A DNA stretch of 64,000 bases from an uncultured Gammaproteobacteria bacterium (GTDB lineage: Bacteria; Patescibacteriota; Patescibacteriia; JACPHY01). A program made the position numbers and the translations under genes. Under the pieces are notes generated by a model that was given only the letters and a program-made list of their open reading frames with translations, was not told where the DNA came from and did not search any database. Of this stretch, positions 11,918 through 46,395 are shown piece by piece. The stretch spans positions 6,018 to 70,017 of the forward strand of contig CAZPCZ010000001.1 of the NCBI GenBank assembly GCA_964585225.1, written 5' to 3'. Position 1 is the stretch's first letter. Each line of letters begins with the position of its first letter.

Positions 11918-13048
11918 TCATTGCTTCATTGCTACCGACTCGCGGACTCGCTCGAATACCTCGAGGAGGCCGCGGGCGGTGCGATCCCAGGTGAATTCCT
12001 GAACGCGCTTGGTGCCGGTGGCGACGAGACGTTCTCGGAGTGGGGCATCGTTGAGAAGTTGTAGGATTGCGCGCGCGATGTCTTCCGGATCTCGTGGTGC
12101 GAAGTATACTGCGGCGTCGCCACAGAGCTCGGGCATCGGCGGGGTGTTCGATGCCACAATGGGAACCCCGCACGCCATCGCTTCGAGGAGTGTGTGCGGG
12201 CAGGATTCGAGCATGGAGGGGAACACGAACGCGGTCGCACTCCGCATGAGCGCGTGAAGCTCGTCCTGCCGGACGAGGCCGAGGAAACGGATGCGATCAC
12301 TCACGCCCAAGGCGGCGATGCGCGCACGGACGCGATCGACATACCGCTGATCGTGCACGCCGCCCGCAAACCACAGTGGTGGCGTGTCCGGCTGTTTCGC
12401 GACGAGCCGTGCGAACCCCTCCACAAGCGCGAGCTGATTCGCGTACGCGACGAACTTGCTCGCCGTCAGAAAGTACGGATGCGCTGACACCTGACACCTG
12501 ACACCTGACACCTGACCAATCGGATTACCATTGTAGACCACTGAACTCTTTCCAGCAGCGTCCGGAAATCGCTCGACAACCTCATCGCGGACCGCGTGGG
12601 ACACCGCGACGACCGCGTCGGCGCGCGTGATGGATCGTTTCGTGAGCTCCCACTTCATCCGAGATTGTACGTCGAGCATCCACGCGTTCCCAAACTCACG
12701 ATAGCGGAACGGCTCCATGTTCCGGATCGCGATCACCTGCGGACACGGCGCCCGGAATACCGCGATGTTCTTCGCGGTGTAGAGGAGATCCATGCGATGC
12801 CGACGGAGCTCCGTGGGAAGTACGAGCTGCTCGTAGCGGAACCGTTCGAGCGCGCTCGTCTGCGGTCGCACCACTTCATGGAATACGATGTTCGGTCGTT
12901 GAAGGCCGGCTATGAGCGGATGTTGTTCCGGAACGAAGCAGTGGTACTCGTTCGGTGTGTCGACATCCGCAAGTGCCGGAAGAAGATTCCGGAAGTACGT
13001 CGCACCACCATACCCGAGACCAGAGAGGAGCGTCAGGGCAATTCTCAT
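11918..13048 (-). CDS. Glycosyltransferase family 4 containing a heptanucleotide tandem repeat
   Basis: Start MRIALTLLSGLGYGG has an ATGA overlap with the AsnB stop. C-terminal GT4 motifs (FVFPS..ES.P..LLEAMACGVPIV). Carries the CTGACAC x4.7 repeat, which encodes QVSGVRCQVS. Confidence 0.8.
   Translation of the reverse strand: MRIALTLLSGLGYGGATYFRNLLPALADVDTPNEYHCFVPEQHPLIAGLQRPNIVFHEVVRPQTSALERFRYEQLVLPTELRRHRMDLLYTAKNIAVFRAPCPQVIAIRNMEPFRYREFGNAWMLDVQSRMKWELTKRSITRADAVVAVSHAVRDEVVERFPDAAGKSSVVYNGNPIGQVSGVRCQVSAHPYFLTASKFVAYANQLALVEGFARLVAKQPDTPPLWFAGGVHDQRYVDRVRARIAALGVSDRIRFLGLVRQDELHALMRSATAFVFPSMLESCPHTLLEAMACGVPIVASNTPPMPELCGDAAVYFAPRDPEDIARAILQLLNDAPLRERLVATGTKRVQEFTWDRTARGLLEVFERVRESVAMKQ
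12484..12516. repeat. Heptanucleotide simple sequence repeat (CTGACAC)x4 plus partial, inside a GT4 coding sequence
   Basis: ctgacacctgacacctgacacctgacacctgac. The unit is not a multiple of 3, so gain or loss of a unit shifts the frame. Confidence 0.9.
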
Positions 13049-14931
13049 ACGAATCCCTGATGCCGCGCCCACGACATGAGGGTATGGAGCGCCCACGGCC
13101 GTGCCCAGGTGACGCCGCCACGGTGATGCCAGAACATATCCCAGAGCTGACGGCATGCACGCACGTTGATCCCGAGTGCATTCTCCGCGGGGAACGATCG
13201 CAGGAGCTCGTCAACTTGTGGACGGAGCTGCCCTCGTAGCCATACCTCCCACGGGAATGTGAAACCCATCTTCGGCCGATTGTATACCGCTCGCGGGAGC
13301 TCCGCCTGCACCGCGCGGAGGAGGAGTGGCTTTGGAGACGCCGCATCCGAGAATGCCGAGGCCGGTGCACGAAATACTGCTTCCACGAGCGCGCGGTCGA
13401 GGTACGGAACCCGCACTTCGAGCCCGTGCGCCATGGACATGACATCCGAATCGCGCAGGAGCGTATTCGCGAGGTACCCACGGAGTTCGAGGAGCGACAC
13501 GGTTCGAGCAGCATCGAGCCCTTTGAGTTCCTCTGCGACGCCAGTCTTTGTCGACCACGCTCCACCCGATCCGGACGTCGATCCCGAGAGCAGGTGCTCG
13601 CGAACATCGGGATGGAAGAGCTGCCTCGTGATCGCGTAGCACACCATCGCGTCTCCTGACGACGTGAGGTACGCAGCGAGCTTCGCGGTGATCGGCGCAG
13701 CCGACGCCCACGTACGCGCTCCCCATGCGATCCCGTGACGAACCGAACGCGGGAGCGCGGCAACCATACGATGCGCCGCCACCATCCGAGGGATCCGACG
13801 AAATGTCGGATACCCACCGAAGACTTCATCCCCCCCTTGTCCGGAGAGGATCACCTTCACGCCCGCTGCACGGACCGCCCGCGAAATGATGAACACATTC
13901 GCTCCGTCGATCGACGGCTGATCCTGTGCCGCGAGCGCCGCGGGGAGTTCGGCCGCGAGATCCGCATCGCGGATGACGAGTTCGTGGTGACGATGACAGT
14001 ATCGTTCACCTACCTGCCGCGCGTACGCGCCCTCTGCGTACGGCGCCTCGGGGAACGTCACCGTGAACGACTCGAGCGACTCCCCCGCCCCCACGTGATG
14101 CGCGAGTACCGCGAGTGCACTTGAATCCACGCCGCCACTCAGGAAGAGGCCGACGGGCACATCGCTCACGAGGTGTCGCGCAACCGCACTCGCAAGTACG
14201 CTCGCAATCTCCGCAGGCGATGACGGGACGCTGCGCTGTGACGGGCTCCAGTATCGCTCCACCGAAACCTCCCCCGTTCGTGCTTCGAATACGAGCGTGT
14301 GCGCAGGGAGGAGCTGCGATACGCCCGCGAGGATCGTCCGTGGTGCCTGTACGGATCCGAATGCGAGGTACGACATCACCGCAGCGTGATCAATCCGCTT
14401 CGGCGCAAGGCCGGATGCCAAGAACGAACGCACCTCGGACGCAAATGCGAATCGCCCCGCGGTATCGTGTAGCCAGTAGAGTGGCTTCACGCCGACACGG
14501 TCCACTGCGAGCAGGAGTCGCTGCGCCGCCGCATCCCACAACGCGAACGCGAACATCCCATCGAGGTGGTTCACGCACGCCCGACCGTACCGCGCGTACG
14601 CTTTCAGAATGACCTCGGTGTCGCTCCCCGTTCGGAATGCCGCGCCTGCGGCCGCGAGCGACTTCCGAAGCTCGCGGTAGTTGTAGATTTCACCATTGAA
14701 CGTGATCCAATTCCCCGTTTCAGGATCACGCATGGGTTGGTGCCCCGACGGAGAGAGATCAATGATCGCAAGACGCCGATGCACGAAGCCGACTACGCGT
14801 TCGCCCATCTGCGCAAGCACCTCGATTCCCTCATCATCCGGCCCCCGGTGCGCGAGCGACGACGCGAGCGATTGCAATCGCTCGCGGGTGACGTCCTCTC
14901 GCGTTCCGATGATTCCGGCGATGCCGCACAT
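13045..14931 (-). CDS. Asparagine synthetase (glutamine-hydrolysing) family amidotransferase
   Basis: MCGIAG N-terminal Cys nucleophile, SGGVDSS PP-loop, 628 aa. Confidence 0.9.
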   Translation of the reverse strand: MCGIAGIIGTREDVTRERLQSLASSLAHRGPDDEGIEVLAQMGERVVGFVHRRLAIIDLSPSGHQPMRDPETGNWITFNGEIYNYRELRKSLAAAGAAFRTGSDTEVILKAYARYGRACVNHLDGMFAFALWDAAAQRLLLAVDRVGVKPLYWLHDTAGRFAFASEVRSFLASGLAPKRIDHAAVMSYLAFGSVQAPRTILAGVSQLLPAHTLVFEARTGEVSVERYWSPSQRSVPSSPAEIASVLASAVARHLVSDVPVGLFLSGGVDSSALAVLAHHVGAGESLESFTVTFPEAPYAEGAYARQVGERYCHRHHELVIRDADLAAELPAALAAQDQPSIDGANVFIISRAVRAAGVKVILSGQGGDEVFGGYPTFRRIPRMVAAHRMVAALPRSVRHGIAWGARTWASAAPITAKLAAYLTSSGDAMVCYAITRQLFHPDVREHLLSGSTSGSGGAWSTKTGVAEELKGLDAARTVSLLELRGYLANTLLRDSDVMSMAHGLEVRVPYLDRALVEAVFRAPASAFSDAASPKPLLLRAVQAELPRAVYNRPKMGFTFPWEVWLRGQLRPQVDELLRSFPAENALGINVRACRQLWDMFWHHRGGVTWARPWALHTLMSWARHQGFV

Positions 14932-29617: not shown

Positions 29618-29699
29618 ATCCACCATCGAATCAAGGGCACCGGCGCACCGCAATACCCCCCACACCCGCAGGCGGTCCGTGCCCGGGTGTGCTCGTCAT

Positions 29700-33195: not shown

Positions 33196-35516
33196 ACGCC
33201 TTCCGATGCCATCATCGTCGTGTAGAGCGTCGCGTACCGCGCGGTGACTCGATCGGCACCGTACTCCTGGACCACCCGCTCTCGCGTGTGCAGTCCCATT
33301 GTTTGCGTCCCAGCATCTCCTACGGTGATCGCTGCAATGGCGCGTGCGAAACCCCCGACATCATCAGGATCAACCAGGATACCCTCGACGTCTGGCCGGA
33401 TGAGCGCACGCACCGGTGGGATGTTCGACCCAATGATCGGGAGCCCGCATCCCATTGCCTCGAGAACCGCGTTCGGCATCCCCTCGGATCGTGACGCAAT
33501 CACGAAGACATCCGCGGCGTGGTAGTACGGGAGGACATCCTCCACGACACCGGTGAATCGTACGCGCCGCGCAACGCCACGCTGCACGCGGTACCGCTCC
33601 AGCGCAACTCGCTCCGGACCGTCTCCGACAAGGAGGAGCACGACGTCCTCCGACAGCATTGCGATGGCATCAATGAGCGTCGTGAGGTTCTTCTGTGCGT
33701 GGAGACGGCCAACGGAGAGGACGAGGCGCGACGTCGCATGATCACTCCCGAGGACCGCTCGCCGTGCACGATCCCGTTCTGTCGCACTCGGTGGTGCAAA
33801 GCGGTCCGTGCGGACGCTGTTCGGGATGTGTGCGATCGGCGCGCATCCCACTGCGCGCATCTCCGCAGCCGTCTCATCGCTGACACCAACGAACTGATCA
33901 ATGCCGTGCCGGAGGAGCGTCACGCCACGCCTCCCGAATTGCCGATGGAGCTCCCCCACATCACCGTACAGTCCGCTACACGCGTTCTTCGCGATCACGC
34001 GCTTGCTCGGCAGCAGGTGACGCGCAATGCTCGCGACGAGGCCCGATGTCTGGAGCTGGTGTGCGTGGATGACATCGTACCGCTTCCGAAGGACGAGGAG
34101 AAGCGCGACCGCCCCAATGAGATATGCCGCCGCATTCCAACGACGCCACCCGCGAATGAAGGGAATGCGGTACATGCGAAACCCCCACCGCGTTCCGATG
34201 AACGGAAGCCGCTCCTGACGCATGGTGTCCGTACGAACGCTCGTGATAAAGAAGCTCCGGTACCCCATCGTACGGAGTCGCTCCGCGAGTTGGAGCGCTT
34301 GCCGCTCCATGCCTCCGAGCGAATCGAGGAACGTGAGGAGGTGAACGATGCGCGGACGCATGAGCTGCGTGGAGAGTGACGCACACTGCTCCACGACGCG
34401 CTCGATCACGTACTGCTCCGCGACGAGCATCCGCGCACGCTCCCCCATCCGCCTTCGTTCATCCGGATGCGCGAGGAACCACTGGAGTCCCGCGGCGATC
34501 GCATCCGGTGACTGGGGATCCACGAGGATGCCGGTTCCACCGCGCAGGAACGGCTGACCTGCCTCGCGCACGGCGTCCGGAACGAGATCGGGATTCCCAC
34601 CCGCATCACTCAAGAGGAGCGCGCAGCCGTTCGCCATCGCCTCGAGTGCGGCGTTCGAGAGGCCCTCGGTGCGCGAGGGGAGGACGAAGAGGTCTGCTTC
34701 CGCGAGTGCCGGCGCAGTATCCGCAACCGCTCCGTGGAACGTCACACGATTGGCAATGCCGAGATCCGCGACGCGCCGCTCGAGTTCCGCACGCTCCGGG
34801 CCGTCACCGACGATCGCGAGTGTGATGCATGCACGCTCCGCCGACGTGAGGCGCGCCATCGCCCCGAGGAGCGCCGCGACGTTCTTCTTCGGTGTGAGGG
34901 TTCCGACGAACGCCGCGCGGAGCTCCGTCGAGGTCGAACGAGTTGATTGATCTATGGGAAGCTCGACGCCGTTCGGAATGTCCGTGATCCGCTCTGCGGG
35001 AACACCAACGCGGAGGAGATCGCGGTGCACTGCACGGCTCGTCGCGACGAACCGATCGACGTGACGGAGGAGGAAGCGGCGTGCGAACGCGCCGTACCAG
35101 TGCGTCTGCTGGAGGACGTCGAGGTCAAACCGCTCGCCGCTGTTCCCGATCTTCACCATGATCGGCTTCCCTCGCCACCGCACGGCGACACCTGCTACGA
35201 ACGCGGGCCAGAGTGCCTGGTGCGCATGGATGACGTCGAACGACCTCGCCCGTCTCCACACGCGCCAACCGAGGAGGACGGGCGCGAGGAACCCGAATCC
35301 CATGCGCACGCGACCGATGCGCGCGATGGGGTACGCGACACGCTCCACGGTGACACCGCCGTACGCCTCATGGGTCGCCACACCACGCTCCGGACGCACG
35401 GTGAGTACGGTGACGGCATCCCCGCGCGCGGTGAGCGCGCGGGCGAGGAGCTCGCACTGCCGTTCCGCTCCACCGATCGTGGGACGGAACTGCCCGATGA
35501 CCATAAGGATCTTCAT
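33192..35516 (-). CDS. Tandem double GT4 glycosyltransferase (two complete GT-B modules in one 774-aa polypeptide)
   Basis: Two N-terminal GT4 starts (MKILMVIGQF...GGAERQ and RIVHLLTFLDSLGGMERQ). Two C-terminal E..G motifs (LSNAALEAMANG and MPNAVLEAMGCG). Confidence 0.85.
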   Translation of the reverse strand: MKILMVIGQFRPTIGGAERQCELLARALTARGDAVTVLTVRPERGVATHEAYGGVTVERVAYPIARIGRVRMGFGFLAPVLLGWRVWRRARSFDVIHAHQALWPAFVAGVAVRWRGKPIMVKIGNSGERFDLDVLQQTHWYGAFARRFLLRHVDRFVATSRAVHRDLLRVGVPAERITDIPNGVELPIDQSTRSTSTELRAAFVGTLTPKKNVAALLGAMARLTSAERACITLAIVGDGPERAELERRVADLGIANRVTFHGAVADTAPALAEADLFVLPSRTEGLSNAALEAMANGCALLLSDAGGNPDLVPDAVREAGQPFLRGGTGILVDPQSPDAIAAGLQWFLAHPDERRRMGERARMLVAEQYVIERVVEQCASLSTQLMRPRIVHLLTFLDSLGGMERQALQLAERLRTMGYRSFFITSVRTDTMRQERLPFIGTRWGFRMYRIPFIRGWRRWNAAAYLIGAVALLLVLRKRYDVIHAHQLQTSGLVASIARHLLPSKRVIAKNACSGLYGDVGELHRQFGRRGVTLLRHGIDQFVGVSDETAAEMRAVGCAPIAHIPNSVRTDRFAPPSATERDRARRAVLGSDHATSRLVLSVGRLHAQKNLTTLIDAIAMLSEDVVLLLVGDGPERVALERYRVQRGVARRVRFTGVVEDVLPYYHAADVFVIASRSEGMPNAVLEAMGCGLPIIGSNIPPVRALIRPDVEGILVDPDDVGGFARAIAAITVGDAGTQTMGLHTRERVVQEYGADRVTARYATLYTTMMASEGV

Positions 35517-36487
35517 GCACGATCGAGGAGTACGGTCCGCACTCCGCCGAGGTCGCAGATGACGCGCTCCGCATCTTCAGCGCGGACCTCTCGATACAGG
35601 CCGCGGGTTGCTCCGTCGGTACGTATGGTCTGCTCGGGTTTGTACCCGAGGGCGTGGAGTGACGTCTTGCGCTCATCTGATGATGCGAGTACTGCCGCGT
35701 GGTACCCCAGCGCGAACAGTGCACGGAGCTGCGTGCGCATGGAGTGCGCCGCGTCGTCGTACGCACGGAAGTGCGTCTCGAAGAGGATCATGCCGCAGAA
35801 TGCATCGGCGCGGACGGCCCGCACGATGCCCTCGAAGACCTCCACCTCATGCCCCTCGATATCCATGCGGACGAGATCCACCGGTCGCTTGTCGGAGAGG
35901 AACGTGCGAACATCGAACGTAGGGACCTCAATGGTGCGGCCGCTCATGCGGGCAACGGTCGTCCCGGTACGATGGGACGTGGGGTGGAGCGTGTGGACGT
36001 TCGAAAGCTCGGAGAGATGGAACGTCGCGGTCCCATCGCGGTTCGAGATGGCGCACGCCTCGATCGCGACGCGATCGGCGATGCTGTTCAATGCAACGTT
36101 CCGACGGAGGAACGTGATGTTCTCCGGTGCGGGCTCACATGCGTACACGAACCCGGTCGAACCCATGAGACGGGCCTCCATGACCACGTAGTACCCGATA
36201 TTCGCTCCGCAATCCCAGACCACCATGCCTGGTCGGAGGACGCGCTGGAGGATCCACCGGTGCTCGAGTTCGCGCTTACCGAAAATTGCGAGCGTCTTTG
36301 CAATGCCGGGATCCGCGAGATCGAGATCGAGCTCGAAATCGAAGACCCGCCGTCGAAGCACGGGCTGCTGACGAACGTATCGCGTCCAGAGGTACTGAAC
36401 AGCGTTCGCGGTATGACGGGGTCCCTCGGAGAGCTTGAAGTCCGTCCAGAGCGCTGTCACCGATCGAAGGTGCATAGGGGAAATCAC
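35513..36487 (-). CDS. FkbM-family methyltransferase
   Basis: VWDCGANIGYY motif I. ATGA overlaps on both sides. Confidence 0.75.
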   Translation of the reverse strand: MISPMHLRSVTALWTDFKLSEGPRHTANAVQYLWTRYVRQQPVLRRRVFDFELDLDLADPGIAKTLAIFGKRELEHRWILQRVLRPGMVVWDCGANIGYYVVMEARLMGSTGFVYACEPAPENITFLRRNVALNSIADRVAIEACAISNRDGTATFHLSELSNVHTLHPTSHRTGTTVARMSGRTIEVPTFDVRTFLSDKRPVDLVRMDIEGHEVEVFEGIVRAVRADAFCGMILFETHFRAYDDAAHSMRTQLRALFALGYHAAVLASSDERKTSLHALGYKPEQTIRTDGATRGLYREVRAEDAERVICDLGGVRTVLLDRA

Positions 36488-37323
36488 GATACTCGCGGGT
36501 GGAGGACCACCTCATCCTGTCCGAGCGACGCGACCGCGCGACCCGCAGGATCGCGGACATCATAGCCGAGCGCATCAATCTCCGCGGCGAGCACCTCGAC
36601 GGAATCGCCGAGGAGCGGGAGGTGCTTCGGGTGTACACTCAAAAAAATACGGGGACGCGCACGCATGAACGTGGCACGACCGCCGCGGAACACACGGAGC
36701 TCCGCACCCTCGACATCAATCTTGATGACGTCAGGGGTGATGCCGCGCGCGGCGCAGAACGCATCGAGCGTCACCTGCGGCCGCGTGGTCGCATGGTAGC
36801 GATCCGCGTTCGTACGCACCGCCCGTGCGTTCATGCCGACCACGTCCTGCTGTTCATAGAACTCCACTGCATCCGCATCGCACTCACCCACCAACGTGGG
36901 TACCACCGTGATGTTTGCACAGCCATTCAGCGCGGCATGTCGTTCCAACGCCGCGCGATTTGCAGCGGCGGGCTCGAAGGCGTAGCAGTGACCACCGGGA
37001 GCGAGCACGCGACTCGCAGGGAGCGCGTAGAGTCCGATGTGCGCGCCGATGTCGAAGACGACGTGCGCATCGCGGCACGCCGCGACCCACGCAGCGAACC
37101 CGGCATTCTTCCCGCTCCCCCACGCGGCGTAATCGAGCGACCCCACCGCGAGCTCGGGAACGATACGGAATGTTCCAGATGTTCCGATGCGCACCGGCAC
37201 GCCGCGTGGGTACGCGCGCGCGAGCGCCCACCTGACGGCAGCGCGCGCCGCTCGGATTGGCGCAGCGTCCGGCGGGAGATACCGGCGACGGATTGTTTGG
37301 GCGAGGTGAACTGCGGGAATCAT
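36484..37323 (-). CDS. FkbM-family methyltransferase
   Basis: VFDIGAHIGLY motif I. ATGA overlaps on both sides. Confidence 0.75.
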   Translation of the reverse strand: MIPAVHLAQTIRRRYLPPDAAPIRAARAAVRWALARAYPRGVPVRIGTSGTFRIVPELAVGSLDYAAWGSGKNAGFAAWVAACRDAHVVFDIGAHIGLYALPASRVLAPGGHCYAFEPAAANRAALERHAALNGCANITVVPTLVGECDADAVEFYEQQDVVGMNARAVRTNADRYHATTRPQVTLDAFCAARGITPDVIKIDVEGAELRVFRGGRATFMRARPRIFLSVHPKHLPLLGDSVEVLAAEIDALGYDVRDPAGRAVASLGQDEVVLHPRVS

Positions 37324-38519
37324 ACGGGCACTCGAGCCAGCACGCGCTCGTACACGGCCGCGACGCGCGTCGCGTGCACCGCGGGATCGAACATCCCGGT
37401 TGCCACGGTCGCCCGGCCGCCAGCGCGGAGCCGCGCAGCAAGCTCCGGGTCGCGGAGTACGCGCGCGAGCGCGGTGGCAAACGCTTCGGCATCACCAAAC
37501 GCGGCGAGGCGGCCATTCACCTCATCTTGTACAATCTCGGGAATCCCGCCGACCCGCGTCGCCACGACCGGTGTCCCGACTCCCATCGCCTCCACGATGA
37601 CGCGGCCGAAGGTCTCTGTCTCTGACGGTACCGCGAGGACGTCGCACCCGGCAATGATCGCGCGGGCGCGCTCGTGGTATCCCACAAAACGCACCGCGTC
37701 CGCGATCCCGATCGTCTGTACGCGTGTAGCGATCTGCGCGCGCAGTGGACCATCACCCACGAGCAGGAGCGCGACGTTTGGGATCCAATGTCGGAGGAGC
37801 GCAAACGCATCGAGGAGGAACGCGTGCCCCTTTCCGGATGTGAAGTGCGCGATGCACCCAATGACCGGCGCGCTCGCTGGGATCCCCCATGCCGCGCGCA
37901 CGTCCACCAGCGCCACCGGGTCGCACGCGACGGGATTCGGGATGACGGTGACGCGATCCGCGGCAACGACGCCGCTTGCGACCCACCAATCACGCGCGTA
38001 CGCCGAATTCGCGATCGCGTGCGTGATCCCATTCCGCAACCACGCCGCGAGTGCAGGCGGAATTGCTCCCGTACGTACCGATCGGAGGTGCGCGACGACC
38101 GGGATGCCGATCGCGCGCGCCGCGCGGATCGCGTACGCATCACGAACCGGATGGTTATTCGTGTGGAGGAGCGCGGCACCGTGCGCACGGAGGAGGCGCG
38201 TGAGTGCGCGAACTGCGGTCGCGTGTGCGATCGCCTCCGCGCGTAGTGCGAGCATCGGCGCGACGCGACGCGCGAGGGCGAGTGCTCGAACAGTTCCGCT
38301 CCGCACCACCGCAGACGAAGCGGTCGAGTAGACGGGGTCGCGGAAAAGCGCAACGGGAATACCGGCCGCACGCATCCGATCGAGCGCGGGAACGGCGTTC
38401 GCCGCGATGACAACCGGCGCGTACCGCGCGCGATCGAGGTGCATCACGAGTGAAGCGATGCTCTCGAAGGAGCCGCCTCCCGAACTCCCGTGGTCGAGGA
38501 AACAAATGGTGCTTGCCAT
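37320..38519 (-). CDS. Glycosyltransferase family 4
   Basis: ICFLDHGSSGGGSFE N-terminal motif. PSETETFGRVIVEAMGVGTPVV C-terminal motif. The N-terminus overlaps the upstream gene by about 76 nt. Confidence 0.8.
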   Translation of the reverse strand: MASTICFLDHGSSGGGSFESIASLVMHLDRARYAPVVIAANAVPALDRMRAAGIPVALFRDPVYSTASSAVVRSGTVRALALARRVAPMLALRAEAIAHATAVRALTRLLRAHGAALLHTNNHPVRDAYAIRAARAIGIPVVAHLRSVRTGAIPPALAAWLRNGITHAIANSAYARDWWVASGVVAADRVTVIPNPVACDPVALVDVRAAWGIPASAPVIGCIAHFTSGKGHAFLLDAFALLRHWIPNVALLLVGDGPLRAQIATRVQTIGIADAVRFVGYHERARAIIAGCDVLAVPSETETFGRVIVEAMGVGTPVVATRVGGIPEIVQDEVNGRLAAFGDAEAFATALARVLRDPELAARLRAGGRATVATGMFDPAVHATRVAAVYERVLARVPV

Positions 38520-39607
38520 GTGGCAAGGTTCACGAAGCGTTCACAAAACTCCGCGTGGCCCTCCGGTGAGCAGAGCGCGCGACGGTAGGCCTCTTGCGCG
38601 CGCGTGGCGACGCCGACCATCCGAACTGGATCGTGGAGCACCGTCGCGACGCGCTCATCGAGATCGGAAAAATCCCACGCGAACGGAATGTACGTCTCCT
38701 CGGGAATCCAGAGGTTCGGCCACGTCTCGACGTGCGCCATGTCCTGCTTCAATGTCGCCGCACCGCAGATGATCGCTTCGAAATCCCGAAGGGTGATCTC
38801 GCCGAGCCCGAAGGGCGACACGACTGCCCGCGCACGCTGCATTTCCGAAAAAAACTCGCGTCGTGACACCTTGTCCGTTCGCAGGTACCACGCGAGCCGT
38901 TTGGACAATTCGCTCCGCGAGTGCGCGACGGATCGCCGGTGATGATGGGTCCCGATACGACAGCTGAGGAATATGCTCCTTGGAGTTCCCGGGGATGTCC
39001 ACTCGTGCGGGTACCACCGAGGAACCGCGCCGCCAGCATGGTACCAGAACCGATGGAGCTGCGGCCCGAACAATCCGTAGTGCGCGAGTCCCGAATGCCA
39101 ACTCGCAGTGACCTTCTCCAGATCCGCAATCGATGGAATGAGGTTGAGATGCTCCTCATCCGGGGTCTCGCGGACGTCGAACGATCGCGCGTAGTAATCG
39201 GTGAACACCCGAGCACCGATGTACTGCTGCCGATAACGCATTCGATCACGGAGCACTTGGCCTTTACAGTACCGATCGACGTACGGGAGGACGGCGAACT
39301 GCGCCGTACCCGTGCTATCGGTGATGTCGAACCAGATGATCCTCGACACGCGGCTCCGGATACATCCGAGGAACGACGTCACGGACGACGTCCCACGCTC
39401 GCTCCACCAGGACATGAAGAACCGACTACTCACGCAGAGCACGTCCCAATCCCTCCCCGCGACCGCTGCATCCGTCGTAAAGGTCAACGCAACGCCGCGC
39501 TCCCGCAGCCCGCGCGCATGATAGTGGAGCGGAAACAAAAATGCCGCACCGTTCTGACTGTACATTCGCTCGTGGAGTACGCAAACGCGTCGCATAATTG
39601 CCGCCAT
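38444..39607 (-). CDS. Putative glycosyltransferase, CgeB-like (DUF3880 + Glyco_trans_1_2-like C-terminus)
   Basis: 387 aa. The C-terminal block VVSPFGLGEITLRDFEAIICGAATLK...ATRAQEAY resembles the Glyco_trans_1_2 family. Assignment is tentative. Confidence 0.45.
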   Translation of the reverse strand: MAAIMRRVCVLHERMYSQNGAAFLFPLHYHARGLRERGVALTFTTDAAVAGRDWDVLCVSSRFFMSWWSERGTSSVTSFLGCIRSRVSRIIWFDITDSTGTAQFAVLPYVDRYCKGQVLRDRMRYRQQYIGARVFTDYYARSFDVRETPDEEHLNLIPSIADLEKVTASWHSGLAHYGLFGPQLHRFWYHAGGAVPRWYPHEWTSPGTPRSIFLSCRIGTHHHRRSVAHSRSELSKRLAWYLRTDKVSRREFFSEMQRARAVVSPFGLGEITLRDFEAIICGAATLKQDMAHVETWPNLWIPEETYIPFAWDFSDLDERVATVLHDPVRMVGVATRAQEAYRRALCSPEGHAEFCERFVNLATWQAPFVSSTTGVREAAPSRASLHS

Positions 39608-39610: not shown

Positions 39611-41230
39611 CTACCCCAACGAGGCGAGCGACTGGCCATGCACCCGCTCGAGGACCTCTCGCGCAATACATGAACTCGGATTGCGATGATCGCGAGCGAA
39701 ACGGATGTACTCGCGGTACGGGTACATCGCGTAGAAGTACGCGTACTTCTGCCAGTACATGAGGTACTGGCGTCGAAAGGCGTCTCCGGTACTCCCGAAA
39801 GGACGGAGTGCCTCGCTGAGGAGGTGCACCGTCCATGGCGGCGTGTACCGGCGGAATGGTGTTTGGAACACGCCGGACGGATCGTGCGTGCGCAGATACT
39901 CGAGGTAGAGCGATTGCCGAAACTTCGCATCAAATAGCACACGCGACCAGAAGGCGAGGTACGCATCGTCCCACAGTGGCAGCTCCCACGGGAGTCCGAA
40001 GAAATCGTACACTCGCTGTCCGGGGATCACAAGCTCGCACTGTCGCGCGCGCCACTCCCACTCCTCGTACCGTTTCATGGCTTCCTCGCGCTCCATACGC
40101 TCGGGAATTGCTTCCACGAAGGAACGCCGTACGCGCTCGCGCATCTCCGCATCGTGTTCCGGTGTCCGGAGTTGTGTCCAGAGCGAGTGGTGCTTCGCGA
40201 GGATCGCGTCGAGCCACATGCGGCGATCGATGAACGCACCCGCGAGCGAGGTCGGGACGTGCCCCCCGCTGATGAAGTCGCCGGTCTGCCCATTGATGAC
40301 CACCGTATCACGTGGGAGCGCGTGCCGACGCGCGAGATCGCAGAATGCATAGAAATCCGTCATCGTCGGGCTGACCGAGAGTTGGTGCACGAACGAGTAG
40401 TATCGTTCGCGCTCGTCGGTGCGGTACATCGCTCGTCCGAACGCACGCGTGTACGGCACGAACGTCCATGGCACGCCGAGGCGTTCCGCAATAACCCGCG
40501 CAGCAGCCGCTTCACAATTCCCCGGGATGCCGTACGAGAATGCGCGGATCGCATCGTACCCGAGGTGCTTCAGCGTGGTAATGACGAGCCGAGAATCGTA
40601 CCCACCGCTCAATGGGATGAGGGCCGTTCGACCATCGAGGCGCCCGATGAGCCGCCGGAAGATGCCCTCGGTCACCGCGTGGAGTTCCTCGATGGCGTCG
40701 CGAGGGGATGCGGTGGAGCTCACTGGATCATAGAAGCGGTAGTACTCGTGGACATGGGTGCGACCGACGCGATCGCGAACGAGGAACTCACCACCACGGA
40801 GCTGACGGATGCCTTCGAACAACGTCTCGCCATTGGTCACGTACCCCGCCATCGCGAACTCGAGGAACGCACCGGCGTTGTGCACGTCTTGGTCCATTCG
40901 CAGCGCCTGCGCATCCCCTGAAATACGAAGATCGTCGCGATCGATCCGATAGGAGAGCGGGTAGCTCTTGATCTTGTCCACGCTCGCGAGGGCACCACCG
41001 CCCCGGTCCTCCACGATGAGCGCGAAGTTCCCGTGGAGCGCGCGGAGTGCGTCGCGCAGCTCTGCGGCGTCACGGAGCAACCCATCGGAGAGCACGGCCG
41101 CGCACAGGACTTCGATCGGATCACCAGCGACGCCGTGGAGGTTCCCGATGAGTCGAATACGAACACCATCCCGCTCCACCATGCGGAGCGGGAACGCGGT
41201 CGGGAACGAGAGGACTGCGACGGGAACCAT
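39611..41230 (-). CDS. Asparagine-synthetase-like amidotransferase/adenylating enzyme lacking the N-terminal Cys nucleophile
   Basis: SGGYDSRLV PP-loop and AsnB C-domain are present. The N-terminus is MVPVAV..., not MCG, and there is no upstream in-frame extension because the neighbouring stop is at 41237. Confidence 0.75.
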   Translation of the reverse strand: MVPVAVLSFPTAFPLRMVERDGVRIRLIGNLHGVAGDPIEVLCAAVLSDGLLRDAAELRDALRALHGNFALIVEDRGGGALASVDKIKSYPLSYRIDRDDLRISGDAQALRMDQDVHNAGAFLEFAMAGYVTNGETLFEGIRQLRGGEFLVRDRVGRTHVHEYYRFYDPVSSTASPRDAIEELHAVTEGIFRRLIGRLDGRTALIPLSGGYDSRLVITTLKHLGYDAIRAFSYGIPGNCEAAAARVIAERLGVPWTFVPYTRAFGRAMYRTDERERYYSFVHQLSVSPTMTDFYAFCDLARRHALPRDTVVINGQTGDFISGGHVPTSLAGAFIDRRMWLDAILAKHHSLWTQLRTPEHDAEMRERVRRSFVEAIPERMEREEAMKRYEEWEWRARQCELVIPGQRVYDFFGLPWELPLWDDAYLAFWSRVLFDAKFRQSLYLEYLRTHDPSGVFQTPFRRYTPPWTVHLLSEALRPFGSTGDAFRRQYLMYWQKYAYFYAMYPYREYIRFARDHRNPSSCIAREVLERVHGQSLASLG

Positions 41231-41236: not shown

Positions 41237-42631
41237 TCATGGTGCGATTGCGGTGTTCCGTCGAAACCGATAGCGTTCCCAGAGGTACGCTACTCCGTAC
41301 CCGCCGAGGACGTAGAAGATCGGGAAGATCATGGTCCGATACCGCGCCTGTGCCGCTGCGCCGGACACCGCAACGGTGTACGCGATGGTGAGGAGGAAGA
41401 GCGCGAGGATCCACCGGAATTCCCGACGGCGGATGAAGACCACCGCAGCAACGGCTGCAGCACCGTACAAGAGCAGGAGGTGGAGTTTCGCGAGTGCGTA
41501 GATGCCGATGTAGCCCAACCGCCCCTCAGACCACAGGCGCGGCAGCAGCGCACGGTTCCCATGGCTTTCCTGGACTGCCGCCTGGAGTGCGTCCGCCGTT
41601 GCGCGACTGAATAGTACGTACGGCGGGAAGGTCCCGAAGAAGAACCCCGGCATAGCGCGGAGCGTGACGATCGCGAAGTCAATCGGGGAACCGAGGATCA
41701 CTCGGGCCACCGCTCGTCCACCCTCCCGCTCCACCGCCACTTCACCACGTGCGATGAGTTCTGGCGGAAAGTACCGCTCCGCGAGTTGTGCCCGCGCTGC
41801 GGGCCGTGAGATACCCTGCTGGTGCATGAGGAGGTAGGCGGCGTTCTGCTGCAGCGTCGTCGCTCCGCTCGCGAACACGCTGCCGCCGACTGCGATGGCA
41901 TTCCGTACTTTCCATCCCCCGAAGAACACCACGATGACGAGCGCGAACACTCCGAACATGCGCACCTTCGCCGCAGGAGACAACTTGACGGATCTCCAAA
42001 GGAAGGCCGCGAGGAACACCGCGAGCGGTACCCAGAGCAGGAATGGCGCGATCTTCGTCATCATCGCACATCCAAGGAAGACCGTACCCAAGAAGAGGTG
42101 GCGATCCGCCGCTCCCCCTCGGAGGAACCGCACGAAGAACAGGAGCCACAGCGACATAAACAATCCGAGGAGCGTATCGGGAATGTTGTAGTGGTTCGCA
42201 AAGTAGAATGCGGTACCATCGAGCGCAGCGAACAGCGCGGCAGCATTCGCTGCACGCGCACTGAAGAGCGCCCCAATGCGCCAACTCACCACGATGACCC
42301 CAATGTTCGCCAGCATGAGCAGGATGCGCATCGGCTCATGCGCGGCGCTCCCAATTCCGAACACCCGGTAGCTCGCCGCGTAGAGCAACGGGTACAGTGG
42401 TGGTTGCGTTCCGGTGGGAAGGAGGCGTCCCGCCGCATCGCGCGCACCGACCGAGTACACGCCCTCGCGGACGAGGTGTTCCGCGATGCTCGAGTACTGC
42501 GTGTCCTCACTATCCGCGATGGCAGGGAAGTTCCGGAGGATGTGCGCGTACGCCACACCGTGGACCACGACGACGGCGCCAATGAGGAGGATGATGAATC
42601 GGTTGCGACGGTACGCAGCGCGGATACTCAT
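41237..42631 (-). CDS. GT-C membrane glycosyltransferase (ArnT/PMT-like), paralog of 24132..25556
   Basis: 464 aa. Shared motifs LLWVPL, FFGGWKVRN, FGTFPPY, LLPRLWSEGR. Confidence 0.75.
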   Translation of the reverse strand: MSIRAAYRRNRFIILLIGAVVVVHGVAYAHILRNFPAIADSEDTQYSSIAEHLVREGVYSVGARDAAGRLLPTGTQPPLYPLLYAASYRVFGIGSAAHEPMRILLMLANIGVIVVSWRIGALFSARAANAAALFAALDGTAFYFANHYNIPDTLLGLFMSLWLLFFVRFLRGGAADRHLFLGTVFLGCAMMTKIAPFLLWVPLAVFLAAFLWRSVKLSPAAKVRMFGVFALVIVVFFGGWKVRNAIAVGGSVFASGATTLQQNAAYLLMHQQGISRPAARAQLAERYFPPELIARGEVAVEREGGRAVARVILGSPIDFAIVTLRAMPGFFFGTFPPYVLFSRATADALQAAVQESHGNRALLPRLWSEGRLGYIGIYALAKLHLLLLYGAAAVAAVVFIRRREFRWILALFLLTIAYTVAVSGAAAQARYRTMIFPIFYVLGGYGVAYLWERYRFRRNTAIAP

Positions 42632-42655
42632 ACAACCCGTGCATGTCGAGTGCGC

Positions 42656-43825
42656 TCACGCGTGCGCTCGTGCGCGTACCGCCTCGACGGGCGCTGCGGC
42701 GAGGTCCTGACCGGCCATGTACCGGAACGCGAGTGGCCGCAGGTATTCCTCGTTGCCGCGGTACCACGCGATGGACCGGTCCATCCCCTCCTCGAACCGA
42801 ACGCGCGGTCGAAATCCGAGCGCACGGAGTTTTGAGGAATCGAGGAATTGATCCGGAATCTCGATGAAATTCGCGGGCTTCGCGCGGGTGACGGGTGCAA
42901 TATCGCGCACGTTCCGACGGAGGAGGTCAATGATGGAGACCACGCTCCGAATGCTCTCGCACCGCGAGAGGGTGCGGAGCTCCTCAGGGATGTAGTTCCC
43001 GACGCTGAACGCCGGCCATCCGTACGTCGCGCGACCCGTCGCCGGCATGTGCGCATGCTCCGTCCCGTAGTACGCCGCAATGCGCTCCATGAGGAGGAGG
43101 TACGCGGCCACGATGTCGGACACATACATGAACTCCCGGAGCACGCGCTCGTTCCCGAGGTTGATGATTGGCGCTTGCCCCGCCAGCAGGCACATGATCG
43201 TCTTCGGGATGAGCCGAGAGAAGTTGAGGTCGCCCGGACCGTAGATGTTGCACGCGCGCGCGACGAGCACCGGCACCTTGAACTGGTACGCGTACGTCTG
43301 CGCGAGCATGTCCCCGCACACCTTCGAGGCGGAGTACACATCGAGCCCGCGGAGTGCGTAGTCCTCGCGGTACGGGAGCCCCTCACGCGTGTCGTCCGCG
43401 TGGTCTCCGTACGACTTATCTGATGAGACGACGAGCACGCGCGGAACTTTGTTGATGCGCGCGACTTCGAGGATGTTCAGCGTCCCCATGACGTTGTTCT
43501 CGATGGTGGATACCGGCGAGTTCGCCGCATCGCTCACGATCGCAGATGCGGCGAGGTGGAAGATCGTGTCGATCTGGTGACGGTCGCACACGCGGCGGAG
43601 CGTATCGAAGTGGAGGAGATCACACATCTCCACGTCCGGGGACGGGAGCCCTGCGTCTGCAGCGGTCCGAATGAGGTCAAGCGTCCGCACCGGCCGTTGG
43701 TGCCGAACGGTCACGACGACCACCGCACCGCGCTGCTGGAGCGCCGTCACGAGGTGGGACGCAACGAATCCATCACCGCCAGTCACGAGGACGCGCTTAC
43801 CAAACCAGGGGGAGGAATCATGCAT
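42656..43825 (-). CDS. NAD(P)-dependent sugar dehydratase/epimerase (extended SDR, CDP/NDP-hexose 4,6-dehydratase-like)
   Basis: FGKRVLVTGGDGFVASHL. YSASK catalytic dyad region. 389 aa. Confidence 0.75.
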   Translation of the reverse strand: MHDSSPWFGKRVLVTGGDGFVASHLVTALQQRGAVVVVTVRHQRPVRTLDLIRTAADAGLPSPDVEMCDLLHFDTLRRVCDRHQIDTIFHLAASAIVSDAANSPVSTIENNVMGTLNILEVARINKVPRVLVVSSDKSYGDHADDTREGLPYREDYALRGLDVYSASKVCGDMLAQTYAYQFKVPVLVARACNIYGPGDLNFSRLIPKTIMCLLAGQAPIINLGNERVLREFMYVSDIVAAYLLLMERIAAYYGTEHAHMPATGRATYGWPAFSVGNYIPEELRTLSRCESIRSVVSIIDLLRRNVRDIAPVTRAKPANFIEIPDQFLDSSKLRALGFRPRVRFEEGMDRSIAWYRGNEEYLRPLAFRYMAGQDLAAAPVEAVRARAHA

Positions 43826-43841
43826 AGATTCATGAACGAAA

Positions 43842-44537
43842 CTAGTTGTACTTCACCATGGCCCAGAGGAACTCGATGCCGTCCTTCACGCCGATTTTCT
43901 TCCCGTCCGCGTAGCTCCGTCCGACATACGAGATACCAACTTCGTAAAGCCGCAGTCGCTCTTTCGCGACCCGTGCGGTGATGTCGACTTCGATATCGAA
44001 CCGCTCGGCAGAAAGGCGTGGGAGAATCCGCGCCATCGCATCCCTCGTGAACGCCTTGTAGCACGTCGCGACGTCGGTGAGCGCGAGGTTCGTCGTCACG
44101 TTTGCTGCCAGCGTGATGATGCGATTCACAAACGAGTGCCAGAACCGCACGACCGGCCGCGGGCGGTTCCCGAGGTACCGCGATCCGTACACGACATCCG
44201 CCTTCCCCGCAACGAGCGGCGCAAGGAGGAGCGGATAGTCATGCGGGTCGTACTCGAGGTCCGCGTCCTGGACGACGAGGTAGTCGCCGGTCGCAGCCGC
44301 GAAGCCCGTCCGGAGCGCGGCGCCCTTCCCGCGATTCCGCTCGTGGAGGATCACGCGGAGGTCTGATCCCGTCATGGACTGGAGCACCTCGCGCGTCCCA
44401 TCAGTCGAGCAGTCATCCACCACGATCATCTCCTTCCCGATACCCCCGAGGTCCACGGACCGCACGAGGTCGATGATCGAACGGATCGTCTTCGTCTCAT
44501 TGTACACCGGAATGATAACGGAGAGCGTGGTGGGCAT
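43842..44537 (-). CDS. GT2 polyprenol-phosphate glycosyltransferase (DPM1/GtrB-like)
   Basis: LSVIIPVYNE, VVDDCSTDGT, QDADLEY (DxD). 231 aa. Second GT2 + GT-C pair, with 41237..42631. Confidence 0.85.
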   Translation of the reverse strand: MPTTLSVIIPVYNETKTIRSIIDLVRSVDLGGIGKEMIVVDDCSTDGTREVLQSMTGSDLRVILHERNRGKGAALRTGFAAATGDYLVVQDADLEYDPHDYPLLLAPLVAGKADVVYGSRYLGNRPRPVVRFWHSFVNRIITLAANVTTNLALTDVATCYKAFTRDAMARILPRLSAERFDIEVDITARVAKERLRLYEVGISYVGRSYADGKKIGVKDGIEFLWAMVKYN

Positions 44538-44561: not shown

Positions 44562-45383
44562 CTACCGCGCTGCAACCCCCGGGAAGTACTGCCCACAGAG
44601 CGCGATGTACTCGTGTGCCGGCACCACGAAGTAGTGCTCAGCGTACCGCGGTTCCTTCGTCCGGAGGGAACGACTGTTGAATGCGTTGAGACCGTGAATG
44701 TAGTGGACCCAGTCGCGGTGCGCCATCTCACTCTCCCACATGCGAACGAGCTGGAGCTTCTCCTCCATGACGTCCGTCACGTCCATGACGACGTTCAGGA
44801 GCACAGTCGAGTACACCTGGTACGCCCAGACCTCAGCGTCCGGTGCGGGCGCATCGTGGAAGGCGGACGCGAAGAGCTCGGCGACACGCCGGTGATCCGG
44901 GTGATCATCCGCGAGGAACGGAAGGAAGATCGCGCCGGGCCGCTGCACCGCGATGGTGTGGCGCATGCGCTCGACGCTCTCCGTCCCGATGGGGATGCTG
45001 CGCGTCGGGTAGTGCCAGAACTCGACCGTCGCACCGAGCGCGGTAGCGACTCGGCGCGCTTCCCCCTCTCGGATATCGCCTCCCAATCCATCGCGTTCCC
45101 CAGACGTCACGTAGACCACGTGCACGGTCGCTCCGTTGCGCCGCGCGTGGAGGAGCGCGCCGCCGCAGCCGAACGTATCATCATCCGGGTGCGGCGAGAA
45201 AACGAGGGTGCGCTCCGCCGTGGGGCCGCCGCGCACGAGGGGCGTACGCTGCCCCGAGAACCGCTGCGTCGAGAGGACGCTGCTGAGCGCATCGAGGTCG
45301 CGAATGCGCGTCCAGTCCTCCAGGAGGAATTGGTACGCGGCGCGAGAAGCACGCTGGGAGAAGAGGCGATGAAAGATTGACAC
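44562..45383 (-). CDS. PIG-L/LmbE-family N-acetylglucosaminyl deacetylase
   Basis: LVFSPHPDDDTFGCGG signature. Start assigned to GTG at 45383, 1 nt after the upstream TAG. The ORF-track extension to 45527 would overlap the upstream gene by 143 nt. Confidence 0.7.
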   Translation of the reverse strand: MSIFHRLFSQRASRAAYQFLLEDWTRIRDLDALSSVLSTQRFSGQRTPLVRGGPTAERTLVFSPHPDDDTFGCGGALLHARRNGATVHVVYVTSGERDGLGGDIREGEARRVATALGATVEFWHYPTRSIPIGTESVERMRHTIAVQRPGAIFLPFLADDHPDHRRVAELFASAFHDAPAPDAEVWAYQVYSTVLLNVVMDVTDVMEEKLQLVRMWESEMAHRDWVHYIHGLNAFNSRSLRTKEPRYAEHYFVVPAHEYIALCGQYFPGVAAR

Positions 45384-45384
45384 A

Positions 45385-46395
45385 CTACGTATCGAGCCGA
45401 TCGCCAGGACGCATGCGGAGCGACCGGACCATGCGCCTAGCAGGAATAATACGACCTCGAGATACGCACGCGATGATGCGGAATGCACCGTCACCGCACG
45501 CAACGACGGGACACCCCGCATCATCAATGGTGAGCACGGTCCCGGGCGCCACGGGATGTCGCGCTACGGATACCGCTTCGCCATCCCACACGATGAGGGC
45601 ATGGCCACGACACGAAGTGATGCCGCCGCTCTTCGGACGAATCGCGTAGCAGGTGCGACGAATGCTCGCTCCTGTGTCGGTCCACGCGATGTGCTGGTGC
45701 GCACCGTGGTAAGGCGGATCGTATGTTGACGCATGCTCTTCCTGCGGGATCCCGCGCAGCACACCGACACGCGCCGCAGCGAGTACACGATCTGCCGTCG
45801 CAATGACCGCGCGGATGACCTGAATCTCCACATCGCCCCACGTTGCGTCTGCTGCAACTGTAACGCGCTCTCGCGTCAGGATATCTCCTGCATCGAACGC
45901 CGCGGTGACGAGGTGCGCGGTCACGCCGGTTTCCCGTTCTCCCAGCCGCACGACCCAGCGATTAGGCGTGCCGCCGCGATGTTTTGGGAGGAGCGCCGGA
46001 TGGAGATTCACCATCCCGCGTACCGGTACTGCGATTACCGATGATGGAATCTTGCGATGGAACCCAGCAACGAACACGAGATCGGGCGCGCACGCGCGCA
46101 GCGTGCCTGCGCACGTTGGCATTCGGATGGTGTCCGCAGCGAGCACCGGAATATCGTGGGCACGCGCAATCGTCGCAGGTGAATCGTAGGCGTCGAATGG
46201 ATCGCTGCATGCCAGCGCACGGCCCCACCATGCGGCGCGGAGACGCTGCGCCACGCGGATCATCACCGGAGTGACGGAGTCGAATCGCGTCACCACTGCA
46301 CAAATCTTCTCCCCACGAGCAAGGAGATGCGTCAAGAGTGCAGATGCATATCCGCGATTCCCGAATACCGCGATGCGAAATGGTGCGGTGGTCAT
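45385..46395 (-). CDS. Formyltransferase (Fmt/ArnA-N-like), candidate sugar N-formyltransferase
   Basis: N-domain ...VNLHPALLPKHRGGTPNRWVV plus a C-terminal Fmt-like domain. Start MTTAPFRIAVFG has an ATGA overlap. Confidence 0.75.
   Translation of the reverse strand: MTTAPFRIAVFGNRGYASALLTHLLARGEKICAVVTRFDSVTPVMIRVAQRLRAAWWGRALACSDPFDAYDSPATIARAHDIPVLAADTIRMPTCAGTLRACAPDLVFVAGFHRKIPSSVIAVPVRGMVNLHPALLPKHRGGTPNRWVVRLGERETGVTAHLVTAAFDAGDILTRERVTVAADATWGDVEIQVIRAVIATADRVLAAARVGVLRGIPQEEHASTYDPPYHGAHQHIAWTDTGASIRRTCYAIRPKSGGITSCRGHALIVWDGEAVSVARHPVAPGTVLTIDDAGCPVVACGDGAFRIIACVSRGRIIPARRMVRSLRMRPGDRLDT

Follow-up and report, generated by a model that had tools for sequence, protein, structure and literature searches.

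Asparagine synthetase (AS)-like enzymes share one adenylate logic, which serves for amidation and lactamisation as well as for hydroxylamine, hydrazine and nitrile chemistry, and formation of an acyl-adenylate followed by an amide is general to the characterised members (PMC13060819, PMC13622209). Some are already known to lack the catalytic N-terminal cysteine (Cys1) of the glutaminase domain, among them beta-lactam synthetase (BLS), carbapenam synthetase (CarA) and lasso cyclases. Here, we describe ASNL, the working name for an AsnB-like gene in a 64-kb stretch of contig CAZPCZ010000001.1 (the window, taken at its full length; Table 1). As Cys-less AS-like enzymes are a known kind, and the database label "asparagine synthase-related" already exists, the bare observation of a missing cysteine is not surprising. 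In ASNL and its relatives, the entire glutaminase half of the N-terminal nucleophile (Ntn) amidotransferase domain is gone, while the ATP site is conserved, in a large clade that recurs in glycan loci. We lean towards reading ASNL as a catalytically active, glutaminase-less, AS-like ATP-dependent amide ligase that acts in the cytoplasmic, membrane-proximal assembly of a nonulosonic-acid surface glycan. We found no account in the open-access literature of a large clade that lacks half of the Ntn domain and is linked to nonulosonic-acid glycan loci, and a recent Clostridium pseudaminic-acid paper makes no mention of such genes.

Several described systems share parts of this design. BLS, from clavulanic acid biosynthesis (PDB 1jgt, 1mbz), has the same two-domain AS fold without the Cys1 nucleophile. 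It adenylates a carboxylate at its PP-loop, after which a nitrogen other than that of ammonia attacks, and ASNL is proposed to act alike. However, the two proteins are 16-18% identical, and the N-domain of BLS is full-length, whereas its first half is replaced in ASNL by 58 unrelated residues. BLS also belongs to a beta-lactam cluster, whereas ASNL lies in glycan loci, and the catalytic Tyr-Glu-Lys set of BLS (Tyr348, Glu382 and Lys443) could not be mapped onto ASNL. CarA (PDB 1q15), likewise Cys-less and AS-like, is the best match of the ASNL family profile among PDB sequences (E-value 2.4e-9, over the Ntn remnant and the PP-loop), with BLS at 7.7e-7. However, it shows 13% identity to ASNL and a different genomic context, and it cyclises a small amino acid intramolecularly, with no sign of such a substrate for ASNL. 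A search of the PDB with ASNL as a single sequence returned nothing useful, and the family profile was required.

AsnB and ASNS (PDB 1ct9, 6gq3) share with ASNL the synthetase domain, the PP-loop, the SGxGxD motif and the second half of the Ntn domain. ASNL differs from them in that Cys1 is absent and nothing corresponds to residues 1-116, and true AsnB paralogs coexist with it in the window. The hydroxyamidotransferase TsnB9 (trichostatin; PDB 7ylz), TsrC, FzmA, PesC and the lasso cyclases, all AS-like as ASNL is, bring a nitrogen nucleophile to an adenylated carboxylate. In contrast to ASNL, these enzymes belong to secondary-metabolite clusters, where their substrates are polyketides or peptides, and the glutaminase Cys is retained in several of them.

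An asparagine synthetase fold without its glutaminase half

The open reading frame (ORF) of ASNL encodes 539 aa and begins MVPVAV rather than MCG. Extension of the N-terminus is blocked by an in-frame stop just upstream, as the earlier note on this DNA had read from the sequence. The identical protein was found on three contigs of the public assemblies examined. A database search returned 235 relatives, and in all of the best 120, which were examined for architecture, the Ntn-type start is absent and the architecture is the same. Just one of the 257 family proteins retrieved overall has an MC start, and this is a shortened MCVSYIG rather than MCG. A hidden MCG start, including one lost through the sequencing error near 41230 that the earlier note had named as fatal to its reading, is ruled out by the in-frame stop, by the lack of the Cys throughout the family and by the recovery of an identical protein from three contigs. 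The missing Cys is a family trait and no error.

These observations also leave hardly any room for the idea that ASNL is a mis-sequenced or truncated AsnB, or else a secondary-metabolite enzyme of the lasso-cyclase or beta-lactam type. Although PF00733 is its sole domain match and lasso cyclases and BLS also have no Cys1, the architecture is common to all relatives and the identical protein recurs on separate contigs. Moreover, the window is 64 kb of glycan-biosynthesis genes in which no precursor peptide, protease or beta-lactam gene was found.

In one respect, the earlier note needs correcting: the length of the N-terminal domain is not normal. In ASNL, the PP-loop begins with serine 208, as opposed to a serine at about position 265 in the intact paralog. 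When the family and AsnB profiles were aligned (hhalign; probability 99.6), only residues 59-456 of the family found a match, to residues 117-551 of AsnB. The first 116 residues of AsnB include Cys1 and the residues that bind glutamine, and in ASNL they give way to 58 residues without counterpart; in E. coli numbering, the glutamine-site residues of AsnB are Arg49, Asn74-Gly75-Glu76 and Asp98. Conservation of at least 80% is reached at just one of these 58 positions. Conserved positions number 17 of 112 in the retained half of the Ntn domain (aa 59-170) and 55 of 290 in the synthetase core. The glutaminase half has thus been lost, whereas the remainder of the domain is still constrained. Neither GATase_6 nor GATase_7 was matched by ASNL in the Pfam scan, and both the N-terminal Cys nucleophile and the glutamine-binding first Ntn half that characterise AsnB (TIGR01536) are absent. 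Because the nucleophile and the whole glutamine-binding half are missing, ASNL cannot generate its own ammonia by the Ntn mechanism, and on this point the earlier note was right.

An AlphaFold2 model built on an alignment of 115 family sequences has two domains (predicted local distance difference test, pLDDT, 96.7; predicted template modelling score, pTM, 0.94), in the AS arrangement of an Ntn-type sandwich and a PP-loop Rossmann-like domain. Foldseek searches of the PDB ranked TsnB9 and human ASNS close to BLS, carbapenam synthetase and E. coli AsnB (all at E 1e-15 to 1e-12), and the N-domain also matched PurF and GlmS. ASNL is a deep, separate AS-like branch, about equally far from the lactam synthetases and from AsnB.

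The PP-loop SGGYDS and the AsnB-type synthetase domain are kept, as previously noted. Together with the SGGxDS loop, the PF00733 match (Asn_synthase; 41.9 bits against a cut-off of 21, aa 207-439), the only Pfam match above cut-off, places ASNL in the Asn_synthase superfamily. Curated AsnB families are not reached (TIGR01536, 44.8 bits against 267.1; PRK09431, 10.6 against 499), and NCBIfam gave only AsnB-type matches far below threshold, with no curated family name for ASNL. Source databases give relatives generic names ("asparagine synthase-related", "C-terminal domain-containing", "hypothetical"), and several relatives are named "asparagine synthase (glutamine-hydrolysing)". Genes of this clade that carry this name in glycan clusters are not glutamine-dependent, which matters for annotation.

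Two other assignments were tried and rejected. ASNL has no match at E<=1 to the lasso cyclase (NF033535) or macrolactam cyclase (NF033561) models, whereas the intact paralog matches at 1.2e-60. Similarly, the NCBIfam scan at E<=1 gave no model of the WbpG/PseA/LfnA type of N-acetyl sugar amidotransferase.

In 115 family sequences with a mean column identity of 32%, S208, G210, D212, S213, Y233, G314, G317, G322, R396, Q397, W415 and P418 are invariant, and R214, D318, H324, H347 and Y408 are 97-99% conserved, with R214 and D318, the Mg-binding Asp of the NGQTGD motif, at 99% each. Invariance of the PP-loop and of the metal-binding motifs among such diverse sequences indicates a working ATP pyrophosphatase site. 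It also argues against ASNL being a non-catalytic relic that acts as scaffold or regulator for the neighbouring glycosyltransferase. The lost glutaminase site, and the tight coupling to and fusion with GT-B-type glycosyltransferases described below, would fit such a relic, but we regard it as very improbable.

A large clade in glycan loci

The best 120 relatives are nearly all 510-580 aa long, and PF00733 is their only regular Pfam match. A 115-member profile searched against 1.84 billion representative proteins gave, at E<=1e-30, 2,590 clusters (50% identity). GTDB species representatives, taken as one genome per species, contain at least 472 relatives. Carriers include Alphaproteobacteria, Coxiellaceae/Legionellales, Desulfobacterota, Nitrospirota, Omnitrophota, Firmicutes, candidate phyla and others. 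In a plasmid collection searched by tblastn, there was one distant match, annotated "asparagine synthase-related protein", in Natronorubrum bangense (NZ_CP031306.1, 556297-557457; 27% identity), so the clade has distant archaeal relatives. Rhizobial plasmid records in that collection, including those expected to carry rkp-type capsule regions, gave no relative.

We propose that the clade, for which there is no curated family, be recognised by a length of about 525-560 aa, by the motifs PLSGGxDSR, FSYGxxGNxEA, NGQTGDFISGGH, KHYSLW, WEWxxRQ, GQRxYDF and WxLPLWD, and by location in a glycan locus. ASNL shows all of these motifs and is the top-scoring member, and its locus includes NeuB, CTP_transf_3, a KpsC-like gene, an ATP-binding cassette (ABC) exporter and GT-B genes.

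To describe the neighbourhood, ORFs were clustered from 85 loci (84 of the family plus the window segment), representatives were annotated and hidden Markov models (HMMs) were rebuilt. Among the 49 loci with full 10-kb flanks, GT-B genes occur in 43, a nonulosonic-acid marker (NeuB, CTP_transf_3, KpsC-like or U541) in 37, NeuB or the cytidylyltransferase in 30, an ABC exporter in 26 and a PIG-L deacetylase in 16. In 20 of 78 loci, a GT-B gene directly follows ASNL, with frequent overlaps of 1 or 4 nt. Directly upstream, the commonest genes are U541 (10 loci), the ABC exporter (nine) and PIG-L (six of 78).

U541 is a 541-aa family (for example, L007 2050-3678) with a sub-threshold Pfam match to polysialyltransferase; its profile found nothing credible among PDB sequences. 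Both it and the KpsC-like family, which are about 520-550 aa long and adjoin the ABC exporter in many loci, are candidate nonulosonic-acid transferases.

Two loci carry orthologues of ASNL, L001 (57% identity) and L002 (49%; a Candidatus Uhrbacteria genome). Both keep the KpsC-like, ABC, FemAB, acyltransferase, PIG-L, ASNL, GT2, short-chain dehydrogenase/reductase (SDR), GT-C, GT-like, GT4 and FkbM genes, in shuffled order. Beside PIG-L, a small GCN5-related N-acetyltransferase (GNAT; L001 5242-5880, L002 6606-7199) takes the place of the Fmt/ArnA-like formyltransferase of the window.

Natural fusions link ASNL to several partners. In P0234 (986 aa), ASNL is followed by a GT-B domain, while in P0248 (1,044 aa) it is preceded by a Wzx-type flippase. 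In P0212, P0089 and P0104, it is preceded by a GNAT. The P0089 locus reads SDR, DegT, NeuB, ATP-grasp, CTP_transf_3::Aminotran_3, GNAT::ASNL, PIG-L and UDP-GlcNAc 2-epimerase. In addition, ASNL occurs with FemAB-like and DUF7033 genes in the P0248, Parageobacillus, Clostridiaceae and Hwanghaeella loci.

Other features of these loci were also recorded. L086 runs NeuB, ATP-grasp, CTP_transf_3::Aminotran_3, GNAT::ASNL and PIG-L, and its fusion of CTP_transf_3 cytidylyltransferase with class-III aminotransferase (7928-9979) is directly upstream of GNAT::ASNL. Firmicutes-type loci (L091 974-8460; L003 8001-13067; L037; L067) combine ASNL with FemAB-like (Acetyltransf_6) and DUF7033 genes, and in L091 the Wzx-fused ASNL is followed by a polysaccharide pyruvyl transferase. 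Genes for sulfate activation and transfer (ATP sulfurylase, APS kinase, sulfotransferase) stand beside the module in three of the loci annotated with Pfam, L002 (1-531), L004 (1-725 and 7382-7990) and L088 (1-3909), with the APS kinase of L004 directly upstream of ASNL; the glycans of these three loci may be sulfated.

Proposed amide ligation on nonulosonic-acid glycans

Because all characterised AS-like enzymes form an acyl-adenylate and then an amide, we infer the same for ASNL. Catalysis, the candidate substrates and the direction of ligation are likewise proposals. A carboxylate would be activated as an acyl-adenylate at the PP-loop site, and an organic amine, rather than ammonia from a glutaminase of its own, would attack it to give an amide, AMP and PPi. 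In the favoured direction, the PIG-L deacetylase would free a sugar amino group and ASNL would then acylate it. The amine could be carried by a nonulosonic-acid precursor or by a polyprenyl-phosphate-linked amino sugar of an Arn-like module, and the acid partner could be a small carboxylic or amino acid. A FemAB-like transferase, formyltransferase or acetyltransferase would then extend or cap the added acyl group.

Three observations fit this direction: PIG-L, GNAT, FemAB-like and class-III aminotransferase partners recur, the clade of the window has an Arn-like GT2/GT-C set, and formyl- and acetyltransferase are swapped between orthologous loci, as a transient acyl group would allow. By analogy with the Arn pathway, the swap suggests an N-acyl protecting group; if this group is later removed, an exchange of formyl for acetyl would be easily tolerated. 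Nearly as likely is the reverse direction, in which the C-1 carboxylate of a nonulosonic acid would be activated and an amine added. It is plausible because ASNL is coupled to candidate nonulosonic-acid transferases, GT-B enzymes and flippases. The earlier note had proposed an adenylation-type ligation of an amine to a sugar carboxylate. Its general form is upheld by the conserved ATP motifs and by the Cys-less CarA and BLS as best profile matches, but an amine onto a sugar carboxylate is not singled out, as an acid onto a sugar amine fits the PIG-L, GNAT and FemAB-like neighbours at least as well.

A uronic acid was rejected as the carboxylate. A UDP-sugar 6-dehydrogenase is present in only six of 84 family loci, and a search with a 173-aa fragment found none in the window (best E 0.098), although such a gene may be located in another part of the genome. 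Within the window, the nonulosonic acid is thus the one sugar acid that is encoded.

Mycothiol biosynthesis (MshB, MshC, MshD) and the Arn pathway (ArnA, ArnC, ArnD, ArnT) follow a deacetylate-ligate-reacylate logic, and by analogy their schemes are mirrored beside ASNL by PIG-L, an ATP-dependent ligase, GNAT or formyltransferase, GT2 and GT-C. However, the mycothiol ligase is aminoacyl-tRNA-synthetase-like and not AS-like, and no protein of the window reaches the cut-off of a mycothiol or Arn family. N-acetyl sugar amidotransferases of the WbpG/PseA/LfnA type (PDB 8wex) and intact AsnB-type sugar amidotransferases (WbpS and the Tannerella AsnB Tanf_01265) are PP-loop enzymes that use nitrogen to modify sugar substituents in nonulosonic-acid or O-antigen loci, a context like that of ASNL, and WbqC and HisF/HisH, partners of the WbpG/PseA-type system, occur in some ASNL loci. 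Tanf_01265 is a 605-aa predicted asparagine synthetase B (PMC6120980).

Several points weigh against an amide ligase of this kind. In the family alignment, no conserved Lys equivalent to the catalytic Lys of AsnB, BLS or CarA could be identified, and no Lys is conserved after residue 420; the near-invariant Arg that follows the PP-loop (DSR) is a candidate stand-in. The neighbourhood is heterogeneous, with PIG-L in about a third of loci and FemAB-like genes in about 10-15%, and roughly a quarter of the full-flank loci have no nonulosonic-acid marker within 10 kb. Fusions also point in two directions: those with Wzx and GT-B suggest a lipid-linked substrate, while the GNAT and cytidylyltransferase context suggests the nucleotide-sugar stage. 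Finally, because intact AsnB can use free ammonia, formation of a carboxamide from external ammonia has to be weighed as well.

This would make ASNL an ammonia-dependent amidotransferase that converts a sugar carboxylate (nonulosonic-acid C-1 or uronate) to a primary carboxamide with free NH3 or with an intact AsnB as partner, which we consider unlikely. The synthetase half is intact, and Cys1 mutants of AsnB, as well as the intact enzyme, use free ammonia. Intact AsnB lies within 10 kb in 21 + 8 of the 85 loci, sometimes adjacent (L007, L015, L057, L062), and the window itself holds two intact, MCG-type AsnB genes, as the earlier note had recognised. However, a presence in about a quarter to a third of loci means that AsnB is not an obligate partner, and the earlier suggestion of free ammonia or an AsnB partner finds no specific support. 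Most loci have no adjacent intact AsnB, and no natural fusion involves a glutaminase. Mere loss of the glutaminase would not be expected to replace the whole first half of the domain and yet keep the second half across 2,590 clusters. The recurrent amine-handling neighbours (PIG-L, GNAT, FemAB-like, class-III aminotransferase) also argue against this reading. Finally, the ammonia tunnel of AsnB runs within one subunit, and we know of no precedent for a supply of NH3 from another protein.

In another alternative, on the pattern of BLS and carbapenam synthetase, the activated C-1 of a nonulosonic acid would be attacked by a PIG-L-freed amine of the same or a neighbouring sugar. ASNL would then be a sugar-level counterpart of BLS or a lasso cyclase, working on a lipid-linked glycan during chain building beside the GT-B and flippase, and would form a sugar lactam or a non-glycosidic amide between sugars. 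The family profile matches BLS and CarA best, and both are also among the leading matches by structure; PIG-L lies directly upstream in six of 78 loci, and the GT-B and flippase fusions place ASNL in chain-building steps. Y408, E389 and E392 are conserved in the family alignment, but the Tyr-Glu dyad of BLS and CarA could not be mapped onto ASNL. The FemAB-like, GNAT and formyltransferase partners would also be left unexplained, and a lactam or amide linkage of this kind is not known to us from any bacterial glycan. Overall, lactam formation or cross-linking appears quite improbable.

Ligation of an organic acid and an amine in glycan assembly, the reading that we prefer, would have wider implications. 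Nonulosonic acids (pseudaminic, legionaminic and related acids) bear varied N-acyl and amide substituents that influence antigenicity, recognition by phages and the immune system, and the function of flagella, and for most of these substituents we know of no installing enzyme. The ASNL clade, with about 2,600 clusters, is a concrete candidate for installing part of the N-acyl and amide variety of these bacterial sialic-acid-like sugars that is still unexplained. If so, glycans would join peptides and small molecules as substrates of AS-like amide ligases.

The glycan island around ASNL

The whole window is a minus-strand glycan island of 62.9% GC (Table 1).

Table 1. Features of ASNL and of the surrounding glycan island (positions in the window).
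Feature	Position	Strand	Basis or remark
ASNL (AsnB-like, no glutaminase nucleophile)	39611..41230	(-)	ORF; PF00733 sole Pfam family above cut-off
In-frame TGA, two codons 5' of the ATG; stop of the upstream GT-C gene	41237..41239	(-)	Translation AP*TCMVP
ASNL aa 1-58, short, poorly conserved N-terminal segment	41057..41230	(-)	hhalign match begins at aa 59; model has three strands plus helices
ASNL aa 59-170, the half (second) of the Ntn amidotransferase domain that is kept	40721..41056	(-)	GNFA, VDKIKSYPL, MAGYVT..TL, QLRGGE
PP-loop SGGYDS (aa 208-213), ATP pyrophosphatase motif, then near-invariant R214	40592..40609	(-)	Translation
NGQTGD (aa 313-318), counterpart of AsnB SGxGxDE	40277..40294	(-)	Aligned to LSGQGGDE of the intact paralog
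PglF-like dehydratase	413-2398	(-)	
Intact MCG-type AsnB paralog, internal reference	13045..14931	(-)	Pfam GATase_6, GATase_7, Asn_synthase
GDP-mannose dehydratase	28592-29665	(-)	
Double GT4	33192-35516	(-)	
Two FkbM methyltransferases	35513-37323	(-)	
GT1	37320-38519	(-)	
GT-B-like gene directly downstream of ASNL	38444..39607	(-)	Weak PF13524 match
GT-C glycosyltransferase (PMT_2, ArnT-like), directly upstream of ASNL	41237..42631	(-)	Pfam; same neighbour in L001, L002
SDR dehydratase/epimerase	42656-43825	(-)	Pfam; syntenic in L001, L002
GT2 resembling polyprenyl-phosphate sugar synthases	43842-44537	(-)	Pfam; NCBIfam AglJ, ArnC, PpgS, all below cut-off; syntenic in L001, L002
PIG-L deacetylase	44562-45527	(-)	Pfam; NCBIfam BshB1 similarity below cut-off
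Fmt-like formyltransferase	45385-46473	(-)	Pfam; NCBIfam fmt/ArnA similarity below cut-off
FemAB-like transferase	46392-47450	(-)	Pfam; NCBIfam PEP-CTERM FemAB family, below cut-off
ABC exporter, fused transmembrane and nucleotide-binding domains (TMD-NBD)	47420-49357	(-)	Resembles HepA, MsbA, PglK; homologues in 26 of 50 full-flank loci
KpsC-like candidate ulosonic-acid transferase	49201-50853	(-)	CapS-cluster HMM 2e-181
DegT and GFO enzymes	51391-53758	(-)	
CTP_transf_3 cytidylyltransferase	53755-54777	(-)	Pfam
Intact AsnB paralog	54506-56362	(-)	Pfam; MCG start at 56362
NeuB-family synthase	57123-58175	(-)	Pfam; NCBIfam NeuB, PseI similarity below cut-off

Three nucleotides separate the stop of ASNL from the ATG of the GT-B-like gene (TAG TCC ATG). 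This gene has homologues in 13-14 family loci and an hhalign probability of 83.7% to the GT-B family that follows ASNL elsewhere. Its profile gave a weak match to a GT90 protein O-glucosyltransferase in the PDB and nothing more. On the other side of ASNL, bounds given for the genes between 44562 and 47450 are those of the longest ORFs, and the true starts are probably further in. The KpsC-like assignment is weak; the CapS profile matches KpsC weakly. Beyond it, the segment 53755..58175 (-) forms the nonulosonic-acid core, with the cytidylyltransferase, an intact AsnB and the NeuB-family synthase.

Two further proteins of the island have no assigned family. One is the product of 15912-17255 (-; 447 aa); the other, that of 31462-33195 (-; 577 aa), had only a sub-threshold match to Wzy_C (O-antigen ligase/polymerase). 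At the island end, the PglF-like enzyme is a membrane-anchored PglF/WlaL-like UDP-GlcNAc 4,6-dehydratase (E 1.6e-73 to 5bju), which points to a bacillosamine- or QuiNAc-type first sugar. The GT2, SDR and PMT_2-type GT-C genes at 41237-44537 (-) make up an Arn/Gtr-like set. Another PMT_2 GT-C and a membrane protein with DUF2079 are encoded in other parts of the window (24132-25556 and 17262-18899). Several glycosylation steps outside the membrane thus seem to be encoded.

The intact AsnB of the nonulosonic-acid core also shows how gene calling can affect this enzyme type. Its longest ORF (54506-56455, -) has 31 codons before MCGIAGY. Because an Ntn enzyme needs Cys1, the true start is the ATG at 56362, and longest-ORF calls would hide the catalytic cysteine.

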